Source: a virus. From it: 64,000 bases of DNA. The translations under genes were made by a program, and so were the position numbers. Under the pieces are notes generated by a model, which saw nothing but the letters and a program-made list of their open reading frames with translations, was not told the DNA's origin and searched no databases. The stretch is taken from the IMG/VR virus record IMGVR_UViG_3300025030_000062, positions 30,900 to 94,899 of that record; one strand, 5' to 3'. Shown one piece after another: positions 39,090-64,000 of the stretch (position 1 is the stretch's first letter; each line of letters starts with the position of its first letter).

Positions 39090-39764
39090 TTAATTTATAC
39101 TATTAATTCGACCACAACAACGCGGTCCTTCGCTGCAAACACCTTTCGTTACACAAGAGGGACCAAGCTTTGCAAACGTAACCGGCGCAACAGGTTTAAC
39201 AAGCTTATTTACAGTTTCAAAGAGTTCTTTAATCTCCCATTGAGCATGATTACATTCCCGCAAACCGCAAGCATGGTGAATTTCCCTTGCGTTCATCGTA
39301 ACGATAATCTTAGTTTCGCAAGCGTTAGGAGCAATAAACCTAGCGTCTTCAGCAGGAATACCGGCGTTAATAAGAATGTTATAAAATTCACACAAATCGG
39401 CCATTTTGTGTTCAAAAGCTTCGAACATTTCAGGCAAAGCTCGAATAGACGGTGGGATTATATAATTAAATCCATTATTAAATGTAACGTATCTTTGTGA
39501 TTGCTGGCTAAAGCTCGCATGTCTGAATCTGACAAGTTGATGGCTCAACGCTCTCGACACACCTTCAATAGCAAACGTAAAAGAAGCGTGTTCCAGACAG
39601 CTTGTATGCCCACAATTAATGATCTTCTCAATTAGCTTAGCATCGCTCGCTTCGTTAACAAAATCCCAATTGTCGCCAACAAAGCCTTCAGCGTAGCACT
39701 GCCTCGCCGCCGTTGCTATTACGTGATCAGGATCAGGAGTATATGCTTTAAGGAGTACGTTCAT
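39090..39764 (-). CDS. thyX: Flavin-dependent thymidylate synthase
   Basis: GHTSCLEH, SRALSHQLVR.R..SFSQQSQRY, EDARF..PNA, MNARE, AQWEI; ATG at 39764. Confidence 0.9.
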   Translation of the reverse strand: MNVLLKAYTPDPDHVIATAARQCYAEGFVGDNWDFVNEASDAKLIEKIINCGHTSCLEHASFTFAIEGVSRALSHQLVRFRHASFSQQSQRYVTFNNGFNYIIPPSIRALPEMFEAFEHKMADLCEFYNILINAGIPAEDARFIAPNACETKIIVTMNAREIHHACGLRECNHAQWEIKELFETVNKLVKPVAPVTFAKLGPSCVTKGVCSEGPRCCGRINSIN

Positions 39765-39771
39765 TTCGTTA

Positions 39772-40701
39772 TCACCTCTTGGCCCAATCAGGCAGTTCAT
39801 AATTTGTTTGAGCCTCAATAAACTTAGCAGCCGCTATCTGAAGATAGTGACATCCTTTCATAAAGTCCAACATTTCTTGTCCAGGGCGCTGATTCTTGCC
39901 GAAGCGGTTAGCGTATTTCTTACTTTGTTCAATACAGTATTCAATGCTCCAATCTGTAGCTTGATCTTCACCTTTATCTTTGTACTGAGGAATTGTATAG
40001 TTTTCAATATGATCTGCCACCTTATAAGCAAATTCAAGCCATTCTGCCGTGCGAATGCCTTTGTACTGCTGTTCACTTGTGGGCAATACTCGCTTACTAT
40101 CTTTAGCAGCTTCAATGATATCGTCGGCAAGTTGTTCAGTGTTAGGATAGGTAATTGTGCTGTTTATTACATCTTCGTAAGGAAGAGAACTGGTTTTATG
40201 ATTAAAAGGTTTGTGATTACGAGGTTTAGAAGATAGGTTTTCAGCAACAGACTGAGCGACATTAACAGATATCTTTTCATTCAGCGGAACCTGCGTTGCT
40301 AATCCAGTTATGAATTGAGGTTTCTCCAACAACTCCCTCTCAGCAACAACATCACGATTAATAGCAGCTTCCGAGCTAAACTTAGCAGGGTAGCGCAGCT
40401 TCAACTTGTTGATGTTGAGGGTTAGGACTTCGTTCATTGTAGTTTTAAGTTCATTTAATGCAAGAGCGATATACCACGAACAATCGCTCAATTCCTCTTT
40501 CGCATTAACTACATCAAGAGCTTTTCCGTAGTAGATGTGCTTTTTGATCATATCAACGAACTCGCCAGCTTCGGTAGCAAGACCCATCGCAGCATGTTGA
40601 AGTCTAGCGCATTTGATCATTCTAGCGTAAAGTTCTGCATCGTATTTACAATCCGTATTCATTGCGTGTTCAACGTAGTTCTCTGAGGTAATCTGTTCCA
40701 A
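39772..40701 (-). CDS. MazG-like NTP pyrophosphohydrolase fused to a C-terminal helical domain
   Basis: HAAMGLATEAGEFVDMIKK...EELSD..WY...NINKLKLRYP. Confidence 0.8.
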   Translation of the reverse strand: MEQITSENYVEHAMNTDCKYDAELYARMIKCARLQHAAMGLATEAGEFVDMIKKHIYYGKALDVVNAKEELSDCSWYIALALNELKTTMNEVLTLNINKLKLRYPAKFSSEAAINRDVVAERELLEKPQFITGLATQVPLNEKISVNVAQSVAENLSSKPRNHKPFNHKTSSLPYEDVINSTITYPNTEQLADDIIEAAKDSKRVLPTSEQQYKGIRTAEWLEFAYKVADHIENYTIPQYKDKGEDQATDWSIEYCIEQSKKYANRFGKNQRPGQEMLDFMKGCHYLQIAAAKFIEAQTNYELPDWAKR

Positions 40702-55839: not shown

Positions 55840-58374
55840 TCCGGTATCTCCTTAGTAGTTAGTCAGTCCTTGACAGTTTAGTTAGTCAATCCTTGACAGT
55901 TAACAACTCGAAACAGTTAAGAGTTAGCAATTAATCGTGATAGCAGTTAGCAAACCTAGGCAATCCCGTTACCTTTTGCCATTCCCGAATGAAAGCTAAA
56001 GCATACCTCTTGCGCGGGAATTCACCGGCAATAAAGCCTTGGTAATCGCTGTTACCCTCTAAAACCTCATAGAACTGTTTGCCGTTTTCATGCCAATTCT
56101 TAGCCAAGAAACAGCCTTTAATGGCGTTATGTTTCAGGTATTGAGTTCTAAGGCACTCGGAAACAGTTATAGCGTTTATCATGGCTTCAGGCTCCTTTAG
56201 TGTGGACAAAGGCTAGCGGTTAAAAACCCACCACGTTATCATTAGCTATCAAGTTTCTACAATCCCATTTTCTTAACTCATTTGGAGCGGTATCGTTCCA
56301 TAAAATCCGCTGTTCATCCCATATAAGATCGTCAATGATTTGATCGATTGTTTTACTCATTGTTTGCACTCCTTTATAGTTTGCCCACAAATAGGCAACA
56401 AGAAACAGTTAAGGCAAAGCTCGACAGTTAAGCGTTAGCCGGTCTAAGCCGTTCCAAGATCATGTGAATTTCCCCTTGCCTATCCATTGACAAGTTACGA
56501 AAAGCATCTTTGTTGCCGTTCTTTAGCATGTTAATTTCTTTCCTGGTTAGTTCAGCTGATAAGCGTTTGAAGTATCCCATTGTCTTAGGCTCCTTTAGAT
56601 AAAGTTAGTTAACAGCTTTAAGTTTATTTACCATTTCTTTAGCATCGTTAAATATCGAATTTACCCAATTATCTTTAATCGGCATTCTGTCGCCTTTAAA
56701 ACATTGTAATTCAATTAACCTTTCTAGCATTCTTACAATCTCGTTGTTATCGCACATTTTAAAGGCTCCTTTAGAAAGTTAGGTTATTCGGCTCGATTGT
56801 CTTTAACTTCAAACTTAAACAGCTTGCCGTTTTCAAATGGACCAACAAGAGATTTGATCACAACAAGCTGGCTTGTATCGTCAAAGCGATAAACCGTTCT
56901 TTCTTCATTGTTACACTTGGTTGTTACTTGCTTAAAACCGTTAACGTTAAAAGCTATGCAATCTTTCACTTTGTTATATTCGTCGCGTGCTAGGCTCATT
57001 TTAAACCTCCTTAAATCCCTGGTTAATGGCCCACTATCACTTTGCCGGTAACTTGCCGTTTAAACGGTATCCTTAAGCCTTAAACTAATACTCTTGCTCG
57101 TTGTAATTATCAGCTATCTCTTGCCAGTCAATAGCGCCGATAGTCCAGCTTTCAAGTTTAAGCTTTCTAGCTTGAAACGTCGCTTTAACTCTGCTAGCTA
57201 AAACTTTATCGCCAGCTTTGCGAATAGCCGAAATAGTCTCATAGCTAGGCTGATCTTGCTCTAATAACCATGCTGCATTCCACGTTCTGCTATTCGTCCA
57301 TCCTTCATAAATTTCATCGACAGAAACAGCTTTAACAAGCTTATCATGTGGGCATTCTTCAGTATCACCAAATTGAAAGGCTTTGCCTAAGTAATACTCT
57401 TTTGCGCCTTTCAAGTCAGTATTCAGGCTAGTTACTATTTCGTTTCCATCGGCGAACTTAATTTTAAATGTTTTCATCGTCGTTATCTCCTTTAAATTGG
57501 CAAGCTGTGACAGTTAAGAGGCAAGGTAAAACAGTTAAATATAGTAAATAGCTCCTTCCCTTTTAAAATAACCAGCTTCATTATTATTGTCTGGTTCACC
57601 TTTAAAACATCTAAATATCTTAACAAGTTTACCCTCATGTGTTACAAAGCGAGAATAAAGCTTATAACCGTTTTCTCTTTTCTCTATTTCTTTCCAATTA
57701 GTTTTACGTTCCATTTCGTACTCTCCTTTTAACCGTTAGTTTCTTGCTACTTCGCTGCATAGCTTAAAAGTTAAGTTAAGCTATGCAAGGTAATAGCATG
57801 AAAGCTTGTTAGGCTTTGAGCTTATAAATCCTTTTCCCTGGTTACATCGGAAACGGTAAAGTAAAACTTATTTCTGTTATCCCTTTGGAGCTGGCAAAAC
57901 TCGTTATATTCAATTCCTTCAAAATATCCCTTATTTTGGAGCATAGTAAATGCCGTTTGCTGGTACGTATCACCATAGCCGTAATGTTTACCCGAATTAC
58001 CCAAATATACACCGTCAACAGTAACTGATACAGAATGATATGTATTGCCATATGATTTTTGAAACCATCGTTTGCCGTCAATTATAATCATGTTAAATGC
58101 TTTCATTTGTCCTATCTCCTTATTACTCGTTAGTTGCGCCGAAATGCTGGTTTAAATGTCTCGTTTAGTGCCGCGCGATACCTTGATATCAAAATCGTAT
58201 TTATCAGACTCTTTGATCCTGGCAATGAGCATATTTTCAATCTCTTGCTCAGTTAGTTCAAAACCGTTAGCAATGTGATTAAGCTTGATACTGATTTTAG
58301 CGTTATACGTTTTAACTCTCATTTTAATTACTCCTATAGTTGAAAGTAGCGACAGTTAAAGCAACAAGTGACAG

Positions 58375-58755
58375 TTAAGCAACTTCAGTATTCAATGCAC
58401 CGTCAAAGCATTCTGCTATGTAATCTTTGATATCATTTCTATCCTTACCAGTAACACGGATAGTAAAGCCAAAAGCTAATACCGGTTTAACGATTACTTC
58501 ATGTTGCGTCCAGCCATCGTAAAAGCCTGATTCATCCATATGATGAAATTCGGTGAAGAAAACGAGCTTTTCAGGAGTTGATTTATCAAACTCGAAACGT
58601 GTACCACAATCAAACCCTGAACCGCTTGGGAAGTGTTCTTTTACTATGTTTTCAATCGTTTCCGTGTGCCGGTCAAACCATTCACGGTTATTCGATTTTT
58701 CGCAATTGATACGAGCTTGGAAACTGCTAGCGATTTGCTGATATGCCTTTTTCAT
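58375..58755 (-). CDS. Conserved hypothetical phage protein
   Basis: PSGSGFD...FHHMDE.G.YDGWT. Confidence 0.6.
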   Translation of the reverse strand: MKKAYQQIASSFQARINCEKSNNREWFDRHTETIENIVKEHFPSGSGFDCGTRFEFDKSTPEKLVFFTEFHHMDESGFYDGWTQHEVIVKPVLAFGFTIRVTGKDRNDIKDYIAECFDGALNTEVA

Positions 58756-61700
58756 CTGTTTATCTCCTATCGGTTAAGGGTAAGGTAAGGCTAGCCGTGT
58801 TACTTGCCATTGTAGGGCATTCTAGGGCGTCAAATATCGGCTAATTTGCCGTGTCCAGCTGGATAATCCCGGTTATCGGCTGTGAACGGCTAAAACTGTC
58901 ACCTTTGCGTATCTGATAAGCTTCGTATATCGGACGCCTTACACCGTTAAAGCTAATAGCGTCTCGTTTCATCGTTTTAAGGTTATTCCTACCGTCAAGA
59001 ATAACTATTGCTCTATCTCCTAAAGCTTCAGCCAATTTGCCGGATAAATCTTTGTTGTAGTATTGAACGTATACCATGGCAAGCTCCTTTCTTATTGTGA
59101 GAAACAGTTACAAGCAAAATGCTATAACTGAAACAAGATAACTAACGCCGATAGTTAAAGCTAATGCTATGCCGGTTAATGCTATATCGGTTATTGTTTC
59201 AATGCTCATTGGCTAGGCTCCTTTACATTCTCAAATTCAATTCCGCTTTCTAATCGCATTCCCCTTTTAGTTAACTTGTGAAGATTGACAATTTTAAGCA
59301 TATACTCAAAATTATGACCGCTTCCGGCTCCATAAGAGCCAATCCAACTATAGCAAACTTTACCATTACTCGTTATGTATTGCTTTATTCTCATTGCTTC
59401 AATTCCGCTTTTAGTTACGTAGACTGATATAACTTGCATACTATCTCCTTTCACACGTTTTGTTGACACTTCACATTAGCTTTACTATGAGTTGCAAAGC
59501 TAATGTATAGGAGCAACTAAACAAAAGCTTACGATATAGTTATTTTATATGCCGCTTTATTATAGCGCCGTTTTGCCTCTTTTTTGGTAAGTGTAAGCGG
59601 ATAACTATCTAAATTCATCCATCCAAAATAATCACCAATAGCACGCCATGCAAATGCACGTTCTACCGGATCAGATGATACAAATTGATTAAGCAAGTCT
59701 AAGCTATCCGTTCCGATAAATGATGCTACACTTTCAAGTTTATCGGCAAACCATACAGGTAATTCAGGATGAAATTTGTTATCGGAAAGAATGCCGTTTT
59801 TAAAGGTGCAATCCTCTAAAATAGCGCGGTAAACTTCGCGCGTATCCGCTTCAAATAGTTCCATTTCCGGCGGATACGCGCCAGTAGTATCAACAAAAAT
59901 CCATAATCCGCCATACTCTAAAGGTGTAGCATCTCCAATTTGTGCTATGCATTTCCATATTGGTTGACTCATTGCTGTATCTCCTTTATAGTTAAATGTT
60001 ATGAACCAGATTAAACCCTAGCATCCTAGAATATTTGACAAGGTTGTAAAGCTTTCTGAAATGCAAGCTGATGCCGTTAACTGTTAAGTTGTATCCATTG
60101 TTTGTTTTGCTGATTTGAGCTTGCATGGTAGAACCTCCTTTTATCTCAGTTAAAATCTATTTGCCTAATCACCTTGTAAACGTTGCGTTTCTTTTTCTTA
60201 TCGAATTCAACAAACTGAGACAGTAAAGCATATTCGGTATGCAAACCTTTATTGTCTCTTCTAGCCTTATAAATTCGCATTAGGCGCAAAGCATTTCTTT
60301 CGCTGTTAACTGTGCTACCTGCTACATGGTTTTTATGGCAGATAAGATCGATACTATACTCGTTATAGCGGTTAATACCTTTCCATTTCATAATCCAGCT
60401 CCTTATTGTTATCCCCACAATTACAGCGACAGTAAAGCCAAGTTTCCGCTATTGATCGAAACGTTTTCAACGTTGCCAAAGATACTAGAGTAAATCACGG
60501 AAACGTCGTCAAGGTCTAAGCCGGTTACTTCAGCGATTAAGATATACATTTCGTCTTTGGTATACATGACATTTCTCCTTTATTTACCATTCTCAATATC
60601 TTCAGCCAGCAAACCATTTAGCAATTCCGATATCTCGTTAGAATATGCGCCAGAAACGCAAAATATAGCCTCATTGTAGGCACTCAAACAGCCGATGTGA
60701 TACTCTCTCTCAATGTTTGCATTTGCCCGGCTAAAAGCCATTTTTGCGCTTTCTGTGAGTAATTGGAGTTGCTGTTTTTTGGATAGTTTCATTTGTTTAG
60801 GCTCCTATCTCGATAGATTTAACTTCCCATTTCAGGATAGCTAAATCTTGACGCAAGTTGTTAGTAGTTAACGTTTCAAATACTTCAAACTTGTATTCGC
60901 GGTCAAATTTATCTTTGCTTGTCTGGAGTCTGGTTATTCTGTAAGTTGTTTTCATTTGTCTACACTCCTTCACTAGCAACAGGGAAATGGATAGCTTCAC
61001 CTTCAAGATTACAAGGTGTATAGGTACTGTTAGCTTCACCGAAATTAACAAGAGTTATACCGTCACAGTCAACAATGTAGTACCAGTAAGGATTAATCAT
61101 TATTTCATTCTCCCAATTACCACAACGGAAACAAACATTAGTAACGGTATGAAATGTGCGAAGTTATCGAATAGCATTTTGTTAGGCTCCTTAAGATGCA
61201 AACATGTAAACAGAATGCGGATCAATGCAAGCTAACATTTCACCGTCAAGAAGTATCTTTGCAAACTTGCGCAGTCCAGCGTTTTCTTTATACAGGGAAT
61301 ATGAAAAGAATACCTTTGCGCCGTAATTGCTAATTTCAGCGAATTCATTAACTCGTTTAACATTCCAAAAACCAGTGATAACGGTATCAGTTAATCCTAT
61401 GTTTCCGAAAGATTCAAACATATCAAGCTCCTTCACTCGGTTATTTACTACACTCTATCGCTAGCACTAAACAGGTTAATGCTAGCTAAGATAGGAGTAA
61501 ATAATTATCTCTTGCAATAAACTTTATTAGAAGCTTCTACTGCAAACAATTCGCCGTCAATATCGCTTTCAGTAGCTACACGAATAGCATTAGCACGAAG
61601 CATTTTTAAGAATTCGTGAGAAGTTAACATTTTCATAATTTCACCTTTATCCTTATCATGAATTTAGCAGATGATTCCTTTTAGCATAGGTCAATACCAT

Positions 61701-61835
61701 TGTCCAGCATATATTTTAAAATTATTTCTATCAAGCTTTGCTGTTCAAAACTTGCACAATTCCAGGCAAGCTCATTTGATCCGCTAACGGCTCCTTCACA
61801 GCTTCAGCAAAGCTCCTTCACTCTATGTAATCGCG

Positions 61836-61854
61836 TAGCAATCACAATGCCAAA
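61836..61854 (-). promoter_or_regulatory. Sigma-54 (RpoN) -24/-12 promoter
   Basis: Minus strand TTTGGCATTGTGATTGCTA = TGGCA-N6-TTGC with exact GG-N10-GC spacing, pointing into the early array. Confidence 0.55.
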
Positions 61855-61970
61855 TAACAGCCTTTACCGTAAACTTTCTTCATTTCTCTAACAATTCTCC
61901 TTATTGGCTGATTAAAGCCGTTTTAGCTCCCATTTTAGCCAATCTTCCGTTTTAAGGTACCTAAAATCAG

Positions 61971-62045
61971 TTATCCACAACTTTATCCACAACTTCAAAT
62001 TTCAGCCTTATTTCAATAGTTTAGTTAACTTTTGCTTGTTGATAA
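61971..62045. promoter_or_regulatory. DnaA-box cluster with an IHF-like site
   Basis: TTATCCACA at 61971 and 61983; TTTCAATAGTTTA (62011-23) near WATCAA-N4-TTR; inverted one-mismatch box TGTTGATAA at 62037. Confidence 0.7.
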
Positions 62046-62173
62046 CTCACTTCAGGATATTGCCTTAATACCGTGATAAGCATTAAACCCCATAACCGAT
62101 TTAAACAGCATCCTTGCTCGTTTAAAGCTATAATGCAATCTTTCATATGTCTATCATTTCAGCCAATAACGGT

Positions 62174-62220
62174 ATACTAGATATAGTGGTTCATTTGATC
62201 TATACCGCTATATCTAGGCG
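62174..62220. promoter_or_regulatory. Tandem NrdR boxes
   Basis: ATACTAGATATAGTGG (62174-89) and CCGCTATATCTAGGCG (62205-20) fit the 16-bp NrdR consensus with 31-bp start-to-start spacing. Confidence 0.7.
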
Positions 62221-62620
62221 TTACATTTTGGAACAATTTAGGCTCGTTTCCGGCCAATGTTTCCATAGTGCAAAGGTAAGGTTTAATTCTATACCAGTTT
62301 GATAGAGTTTGATTGTTCATTGCTTTGATAGGGAATTGTTTAACGGTAACTGACTAGACAACTCCATTAACCGTTAGTTCATTTGTTTACTTGATTATTG
62401 AATTTGATATATGCGGAAAGTTGAATGTATCCAGGCAAATTAGGATCGGCGTTAGCTCCTCTCGATCCTGTTCAGCTGTTGACGAATTGCCCACAATTGG
62501 AGCGTGCACCGTCTCGTTTCTAGCTATGTCTATTTGTGGGCAATGCTAGCGTATAGGGTAAGGGATTAGGACCGGCTGTAAGGCCATTTAGGACGCTGAT
62601 TATCGATGTTATAGACGCGA

Positions 62621-62652
62621 CAAAGGCCACTCTAACTGCTAGTGGCCTTTTG
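62621..62652 (-). terminator. Intrinsic terminator
   Basis: AAAGGCCACT-9 nt-AGTGGCCTTT downstream of ORF 62676..63059. Confidence 0.75.
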
Positions 62653-62675
62653 GCTGTATCTGGTATCGGTGAAGG

Positions 62676-63059
62676 TTAGTTTATACTTGCTTGATAGTAA
62701 TAACCAGAACCTTTCTTTTCATCGTAAAATGTGAATTCGCATATCTCGTTAAACATTGTACCGTCAAAGTTTAGAATGTAAGTCTGATAATCAAGCGGTT
62801 TACATTTGGAAATTTCACTCTTTGCGCCGTCCATTTCACATTCTGATTCTATAGCGCGTCCATGATTATATTCAAAGTCAACAAAGCTTTTAATGCCGTT
62901 TTTCTTGCTAACACTTATGTTATAAATGCTCGTTGGATTTTCAAAGGATTCACGTTCAATATCAAAGCTAAAACCTTTCGCTTCACATGCCGCTTTGACG
63001 TAGGAAAAGAACTGAGCCAAGCTAACATTGTTTCTCGTAATTTCTATTTCAGCTTTCAT
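62676..63059 (-). CDS. Stand-alone hypothetical early protein
   Basis: ATG after AAGGAG; has its own promoter and terminator. Confidence 0.65.
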   Translation of the reverse strand: MKAEIEITRNNVSLAQFFSYVKAACEAKGFSFDIERESFENPTSIYNISVSKKNGIKSFVDFEYNHGRAIESECEMDGAKSEISKCKPLDYQTYILNFDGTMFNEICEFTFYDEKKGSGYYYQASIN

Positions 63060-63100
63060 ATTAGCTCCTTTTAACATATTAAATTAACCTTTCGCCGTAA

Positions 63101-63128
63101 CTTATATCATTTCAATGACGCTTGTCAA
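63101..63128 (-). promoter_or_regulatory. Strong sigma-70-type promoter
   Basis: Minus strand TTGACA-16-TATAAG with TG extension. Confidence 0.65.
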
Positions 63129-63149
63129 TCGTTAAAGTTTCATTTCTCG

Positions 63150-63955
63150 CATTACTCGTTACACGTCTTGTTGCCTCATTCCGTTGCTCGTTGCCGGTCA
63201 TCCGCTTGCCGGTCATCCGCTTGCCGTCTCCTATCCCTCATACGGTCATGTGCTCCATTGCCGTCTAGCACGTCTCCTTTGCCGGTCCATACCGTTAGCT
63301 TGCCATGCTCCTTTACGCCGTCTCTAGGTCATCCTAGAGGCTCGTTTATCGCTTCTCTTGCCGTGTCTCGATAGATCGACCGTTCGGCCAGCTGGTAAGG
63401 CTCCTTTGATCCAGGCTAACACCTTGTTGCCATTCATTGGCTCATTACACTCCTTCACCTGATACCACTACCAAGCTCGTTAGCGCAATCATGCAAGCAA
63501 TCATGCTTATAGGCTCGTTGTCCAGCTCGTTGTGCTACTCCATAAGCTAATCCCATTGTCCAGCTCGTTAGTCAATACCGTCTCGTTGCCGTTCATACTC
63601 TCATTTCCCCACAATACAGCCGTTCCATACTTTGATCCGTCAACAGCTTGCCGTCTCACTCTTGCTTGTTGCTTCGATTAACTCATTACTTCAGCCGGTC
63701 TACTCCTTCAACTCAACAGCTCCATTGTCTTGTCTACTTCCATTACTTCGCCCATTACTCAATCCATTACTCATTGTTTATTACATCCAATAACACGCCG
63801 TAACTCTTTAATATCGTTCATGTTTTGCTACCGTTAAGTATCTTGTTATCAGATTGTCTCTACTCACTGAGTAACCTGGAGCACTCGAAATTTCCTAGTC
63901 ATTCCGCATACTTAGGGAAACTGAGTACCTGGTCTACTCACTACTGAGTAACCGT
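63150..63955 (+). repeat. Non-coding pyrimidine-skewed region of short co-oriented repeats
   Basis: TTGCCG x8, GCTCGTT x6, CCATTACT x3, tandem TTGCCGGTCATCCGC, and TACTCA/TGAGTA repeats. Confidence 0.75.
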
Positions 63956-64000
63956 ACCACTCCCCCGTCGAAAAACCTTTGGAGTTCTCGCTAGTTAGAC

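Follow-up and report, generated by a model that had tools for sequence, protein, structure and literature searches.

A tandem NrdR-type operator in a gene-free block of a groundwater phage contig without ribonucleotide reductase genes

Results

A gene-free block close to the end of the contig

The DNA analyzed here (the window, 64,000 nucleotides) is the final 64 kb of a 94,899-bp IMG/VR virus contig from a groundwater phage, 81% complete by CheckV, so that position 64000 of the window is also the end of the contig. From ~48.6 kb to 63.1 kb of the window every gene lies on the minus strand, and between ~48.6 kb and the contig end two stretches were without a credible gene. One of them, a block of ~1 kb (61640-62680), harbors a pair of NrdR-type boxes located 1.8 kb from the contig end. 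This block stays noncoding under alternative genetic codes (code 4, or TAG read as Gln). RNA folding of both flanks of the pair and of 62400-62665 was unremarkable, Rfam and tRNA scans of the window returned no matches, and a blastn search of 61000-64000 against GenBank phage records gave no match. The other stretch, 63080-64000, showed many short direct repeats (CTCGTTGCC..., TTGTCCAGCTCGTT, CGGTCATCCGCT), which may be iterons, a packaging region or the cause of the assembly stop.

The features surrounding the pair are collected in Table 1. The sigma-54-type match could have arisen by chance, for which a rough estimate is ~0.1 per window. The hairpin at 62622-62650 resembles a bidirectional terminator that closes ORF133. 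If it ends the ORF133 transcript, the leftward genes starting at 61636 would require a promoter within the block. Neither strand was found to have a start codon with a ribosome-binding site nearer to the pair than 538 bp. No sigma-70-like promoter overlapping the boxes was found either, and matches to such promoters were no commoner than in shuffled sequence. As a separate observation, the pattern TTATCCACA-NNN-TTATCCACAAC was present in 100 IMG/VR stretches against ~0.1 expected, and tandem DnaA boxes thus seem widespread among phages.

Table 1. Features of the window that bear on the NrdR-type box pair (window positions)
Feature	Position	Strand	Remarks
thyX	39180-39752	-	~22 kb from the pair
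MazG-domain gene	40381-40584	-	~22 kb from the pair
First ORF with a Shine-Dalgarno left of the block	61505-61636	-	538 bp from box A
Sigma-54-type -24/-12 element (TGGCATTGTGATTGCT)	61837-61852	-	Near-perfect; only match on the contig; points leftward at the early operon
Perfect DnaA boxes (TTATCCACA)	61971-61991 (starts 61971 and 61983)	+	12 bp apart; the only two perfect ones on the contig
DnaA-like box, one mismatch (TTATCAACA)	62037-62045	-	Inverted relative to the other two
NrdR-type box A (ATACTAGATATAGTGG)	62174-62189		Six of six conserved positions; A/T at 7 of 8 bases between C4 and G13
Linker between the boxes	62190-62204		15 bp; ~three helical turns center to center
NrdR-type box B (CCGCTATATCTAGGCG)	62205-62220		Six of six conserved positions; positions 3 (G) and 14 (G) atypical
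16-nt inverted repeat with the word TGTGGGCA on both strands	62486-62544		Word at 62488 (minus) and 62535 (plus)
Perfect 10-bp hairpin, short T runs on both strands	62622-62650		Found by repeat search
ORF133, last gene before the contig end	62676-63077	-	Homologs in other phages

The two boxes follow the published rules for an NrdR site

NrdR, a bacterial repressor sensing the levels of DNA precursors, has been described as RNR-specific (PMC9110341, PMC12051234, PMC13584703, PMC4409342), RNR standing for ribonucleotide reductase. Its site consists of two 16-bp, partly palindromic boxes separated by a linker of 15-16 bp (PMC9110341, PMC12051234, PMC13584703); binding is good with linkers of 14-18 bp, and those of 24-27 bp are tolerated too (PMC12051234). 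The critical contacts are C4 and G13 (PMC9110341, PMC13584703), A6 and T11 seem critical as well, and the bases between C4 and G13 must be at least 63% AT (PMC9110341, PMC12051234, PMC13584703). The initial annotation, made from sequence, had described two imperfect palindromes of 16 bp, 31 bp apart, and both are indeed present at 62174-62189 and 62205-62220, with box starts 31 bp apart. Box A reads ATACTAGATATAGTGG on the plus strand and CCACTATATCTAGTAT as its reverse complement. C4 corresponds to the C at 62177 and 62208, and G13 to the G at 62186 and 62217. A6, A8, T9 and T11 occur in both boxes, and the stretch between C4 and G13 is 88% AT in each. The 12 conserved positions are all preserved, as are the two 10-nt cores. 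The bases of box B at positions 3 and 14 are rare among the phage pairs compared. The 10-nt core of each box is palindromic at 8 of 10 positions, and together the boxes form a 14-nt inverted repeat (62177-62190 and 62204-62217) matching at 13 of 14 positions. The hairpin fold of this repeat is strong (z-score -4.1). An intrinsic terminator at the repeat was considered and rejected, as the stem is AT-rich and a T run is absent 3' on either strand.

A search with the 16-mer consensus, allowing up to three mismatches, gave one match in the window against 1.28 expected. Since a lone box thus proves little, the published pair rules were applied, namely C4/A6/A8/T9/T11/G13 in both boxes, a linker of 15-16 and at least 63% AT between C4 and G13. 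These are the general published rules for NrdR pairs. Only one pair on the 94,899-bp contig followed them. A chance resemblance could be argued from the facts that one window is expected to contain about one consensus-like box and that inverted repeats of 13-14 nt are not rare. However, first-order Markov simulations of a 95-kb sequence yielded any such pair in only 3 of 300 runs (mean 0.01, the expectation per contig), and for identical 10-nt cores with precisely this spacing the expectation would be much lower again, which makes coincidence a very improbable explanation.

The same cores precede ribonucleotide reductase genes in bacteria

In order to find the same motif elsewhere, 185,579 species genomes were scanned for both exact cores with any spacer of 12-30. 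The CTAGATATAG-N-CTATATCTAG core pair lies directly upstream of NrdD in five loci (L020, L026, L046, L055 and L023) and directly upstream of a class I/II RNR large-subunit gene in another (L061), so that 6 of the 10 neighbor genes tested were RNRs directly downstream of the core pair. These cores stand before RNR genes in several phyla, and the window motif is accordingly taken to be that RNR-preceding motif. Spacers of 21 formed the peak of the scan (13 matches), accompanied by spacers of 22 (3 matches) and 20 (5 matches). These counts exclude ~26 matches that were set aside as an unrelated Paenibacillus repeat with a spacer of 20. The Paenibacillus element (L017, L019, L022 and ~23 other loci) has the same two 10-nt cores, a 20-nt spacer, conserved flanks and several copies per genome, and looks like a dispersed repeat and not an nrd promoter.

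The contig carries nucleotide genes and no ribonucleotide reductase gene

It had also been claimed that no nrd gene lies in the window whereas thyX and mazG are present. The two nucleotide genes were confirmed (Table 1), and the absence of nrd genes extends to the whole contig, an 81%-complete sequence whose end is 1.8 kb from the site. On it, no match was obtained with the Pfam models of the RNR large subunit, NrdD, the RNR small subunit and the ATP-cone, and tblastn with five RNR proteins detected no remnant. An RNR could be encoded in the 19% of the genome that is missing; an RNR operon beyond the contig end would lie more than 1.8 kb from the pair, with an opposite-strand gene between.

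NrdR-type pairs recur in other phages, usually away from ribonucleotide reductase genes

A search of IMG/VR for the exact core pair with spacers of 15-23 allowed gave 15 loci (L002-L016), and in 15 of 15 the spacer was 21-22. With the perfect-palindrome core, CTATATATAG in two copies and a spacer of 15-28, IMG/VR yielded more than 118 matches. The spacer was again 21-22 in 67 of the 80 perfect-palindrome loci that were fetched (L126-L205), many of which come from a few families of related large phages, so that independent examples number perhaps two dozen. Most phage boxes have A at position 3 and T at position 14, which extends the NrdR consensus.

An RNR was found inside 6 of the 80 fetched loci and adjacent to the pair in none of them. 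The exact-core set includes five long records, of which two are without a match to ATP-cone, RNR large subunit or NrdD, two carry an RNR 8-21 kb from the pair, and the fifth encodes a 781-aa ATP-cone protein ~55 kb from the pair that has no RNR-domain match. The RNR genes of L099 and L100 (records G003 and G004) have no NrdR-type pair upstream; the pair lies elsewhere, 8-21 kb off. Most pairs in other phages are located 28-64 nt before a start codon, which a ribosome-binding-like purine run precedes in the examples inspected. Directly downstream are, among others, genes for an NAD-dependent DNA ligase and a dUTPase/dCTP-deaminase-like protein, weak nucleoside-hydrolase-like matches and many genes without assigned function, and none of those examined encodes an RNR. 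In L014, aspartate carbamoyltransferase is encoded by the second gene downstream of the pair. L166 has, on the opposite strand, an AAA_24 ATPase gene starting ~50 nt from its pair, and in L015 the pair adjoins the 3' end of a staphylococcal-nuclease-like gene. Several other phages have two or more pairs, and some encode ATP-cone proteins.

The pair in the window shares its boxes and its 31-32 bp phasing with the pairs of other phages and, like them, is not beside an RNR gene, as is usual among them. It differs in that most of the others stand at the above distance before a gene with a ribosome-binding site, whereas the pair here stands by itself in a gene-free block. Among 83 other phage pairs, not one had a DnaA box at 600 bp or less. 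Altogether, ~80 other phage loci at NrdR spacing hold well-formed pairs away from RNR genes, often before genes of DNA or nucleotide metabolism, and phage NrdR-type operators before non-RNR genes look common as judged by such motif matches. The pair rules, the bacterial nrdD and RNR loci and the spacing-restricted recurrence in phages lend good support to the proposal of the initial annotation that the window holds a tandem NrdR operator without an RNR gene. That the boxes form a genuine NrdR-type operator, to which NrdR would bind, is well supported at the level of sequence.

Relatives of the phage end short of the block or lack the pair

Searches of IMG/VR with the single proteins ORF133 and ORF147 found no relatives. 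A primase-polymerase search identified one relative (L001), and the contig of L001 ends 10 kb before the block. Alignments of ORF147 and ORF133 identified 38 distant loci, and none of these has an NrdR pair or a syntenic block. A 96.5-kb record (G006) was examined as a candidate relative and rejected as unrelated overall. The closest relative (L125, JGI contig Ga0209518_1015580) came from a metagenome scan and shows 85-92% nucleotide identity over 57469-61191 of the window. It diverges past 61191, where its remaining 474 nt are unrelated, and then the contig ends. This divergence indicates that the final 2.8 kb of the window are a swapped, lineage-specific module.

Discussion

The phage pair shows the same box form, 15-bp linker, C4/A6/A8/T9/T11/G13 positions and AT-rich center as the operators of bacterial RNR operons (Escherichia coli nrdAB, nrdHIEF and nrdDG; S. 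coelicolor nrdRJ and nrdAB; L. monocytogenes nrdAB and nrdDG) (PMC9110341, PMC12051234, PMC13584703). Unlike these operators, which stand upstream of RNR operons and in most cases overlap the site of RNA polymerase, it has no RNR on its contig, no recognized overlapping promoter, its nearest gene at 538 bp and DnaA boxes nearby. Until the report of P. aeruginosa topA, every known NrdR-regulated gene encoded an RNR (PMC4409342, 2015). The topA promoter was the first target of NrdR outside the RNR genes to be demonstrated by experiment. It resembles the phage case in that it serves DNA metabolism, but it has a single box and an obvious promoter, belongs to a chromosomal gene and is activated, not repressed (PMC4409342). 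The position, inside a probable origin or control block of an RNR-less phage, is unusual for an NrdR-type operator.

The explanation we favor, at about an even bet (a probability of roughly 0.5), is that host NrdR gates transcription from this block, which would be a control or origin block. The operator would be the site for an NrdR tetramer that is bound to DNA once it carries both dATP and ATP, and that kinks each box. NrdR is on DNA when dATP replaces ATP in its outer site and off when ATP dominates (PMC13584703). The protein would be supplied by the host, NrdR having been reported for 77% of bacterial genomes (PMC13584703), or by the phage itself from its unsequenced part; nrdR has been listed among gut-phage genes (PMC10294663). 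We infer the binding of NrdR, the presence of a promoter and its direction, as well as the physiological logic. Transcription starting in the block would depend on the dNTP status of the host, and the gated transcript would be the leftward early operon from 61636, a short origin-proximal transcript, or both. With dATP high relative to ATP, NrdR would bind and the block would be silent. Once replication drains the dNTPs, NrdR would leave, and because it leaves DNA when ATP dominates (PMC13584703), the block would fire together with the host RNR genes.

By likeness to other phages, a promoter probably overlaps the pair. The downstream box in minus-strand reading (CCACTATATCTAGTAT) has the same sequence as box 2 of L007 and L009, two loci in which a gene lies downstream in that direction. 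Since all neighboring genes here are also on the minus strand, a leftward transcript is favored, and under NrdR gating it would cross the DnaA boxes towards the early operon. Alternatively, a rightward transcript of ~430 nt would end at the 62622-62650 hairpin. The distance to any gene and the lack of a recognized promoter are real weaknesses of this gating proposal, and it is not obvious what a phage would gain from silencing its genes while dNTPs are plentiful.

Several other explanations were weighed. The pair could control no phage gene and instead act as a decoy, the sponge proposed in the initial annotation, with the amplifying phage DNA soaking up the few NrdR tetramers of the cell so that the host RNR genes are turned on and the RNR-less phage is fed. 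The contig is indeed without RNR and yet has thyX and MazG, the pair stands far (538 bp) from any gene, the block holds other host-factor sites (the only perfect DnaA boxes and the only sigma-54 consensus of the contig), and two or more pairs occur in several other phages. However, there is a single pair here, one of its boxes is suboptimal, and the other phage pairs sampled are placed as ordinary operators before genes, which by comparison favors promoter control. A decoy may also add little, as NrdR is already off the DNA when dNTPs fall. We regard titration by the pair as doubtful. A titration locus consists of sites of high affinity that regulate no gene and whose copy number alters the amount of free repressor, and the lack of a gene near the pair fits this. 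A documented titration effect is that of E. coli datA, a chromosomal cluster of several DnaA sites. This DnaA decoy locus is similar in having sites without a regulated gene and a suggested copy-number effect, but datA consists of several chromosomal sites, whereas the phage has a single pair.

The pair might also be a relic or passenger, such as an nrd promoter whose gene was lost, which arrived with host or phage DNA and is now functionless. Its absence from every distant relative examined, the divergence of L125 past 61191 with a lineage-specific end of 2.8 kb and the degraded flanks of box B are consistent with this. The intact 12 of 12 conserved positions and both 10-nt cores, the lack of any RNR remnant on the contig and a block that does not become coding under alternative genetic codes argue against it, and on balance we find a relic unlikely.

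A site of another kind is improbable, be it an enhancer where a sigma-54 activator binds, the target of a DNA-binding protein of the phage, or an origin cruciform or hairpin. NtrC-type enhancers are tandem palindromes ~three helical turns apart, and sigma-54 activator sites lie roughly 80-200 bp upstream of a -24/-12 promoter. A sigma-54 consensus is in fact present leftward of the pair at a distance of 322 bp, on the same strand as the early genes, the box repeat folds as a strong hairpin, and DnaA boxes and TGTGGGCA words flank the pair. However, the pair lies 322-383 bp upstream of the -24/-12 consensus, farther than is usual for such enhancers, and no activator consensus was matched. A U-tract is absent after the hairpin. 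Moreover, each arm is a near-palindrome with all six NrdR positions and the same cores precede RNR genes in bacteria; neither a sigma-54 activator nor an origin hairpin explains the full match to the NrdR rules.

A broader and quite tentative proposal treats the whole gene-free block as a replication origin or control hub that includes the NrdR pair, the DnaA boxes and the inverted TGTGGGCA words. In such a hub, host NrdR would gate an origin-proximal transcript, or the amplifying block would titrate NrdR and perhaps DnaA. If the gating version is true, phage replication would start only with the dNTP sensor of the cell in its "make dNTPs" state; if the titration version is true, RNR genes of the host itself would be switched on by an RNR-less phage. 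In both versions, the phage would tap the host dNTP sensor through DNA alone.

The phage probably reads or disturbs this sensor, as many other phages seem to, and the interest of the pair comes mainly from that wider pattern, as a literature search found no description of NrdR-type operators on phage DNA away from RNR genes. If the sites are functional, phages would routinely wire their own genes into the host dNTP sensor, or alternatively disarm it, which would be a cheap, protein-free host takeover. Functional sites would also supply research on NrdR with many new natural operators. NrdR proteins bind the boxes of other species equally well, which makes these operators directly testable (PMC13584703).

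Additional observations on phage pairs

In L131, L127, L134 and many of L126-L205, drawn from several large-phage families, a short A-rich/T-rich hairpin (for example AAGAAAC...GTTTCTT or ATGAAA...TTTCAT) follows ~10 nt past box 2 and precedes the ribosome-binding site; the hairpin-bearing pair looks like a recurring promoter-leader cassette. The pairs in L005, L006, L012 and L075 adjoin large serine recombinase genes, in gaps between convergent genes, and may mark prophage ends or attachment regions.

L013 from IMG/VR and L059 from GTDB belong to contigs that are each 85,549 bp long, and they have the same box pair and flanks. The former is listed as a complete virus with terminal repeats and the latter as part of a Paceibacterota genome bin, and they are probably one phage that was binned with a candidate host. 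Finally, a 5.7-kb contig (L325), presumably microvirus-like from its size and first gene, showed at least three DnaA boxes interleaved with three strong NrdR-like boxes at 1180-1400, with a 42-bp period and 26-bp linkers, just upstream of its first long reading frame (343 aa).
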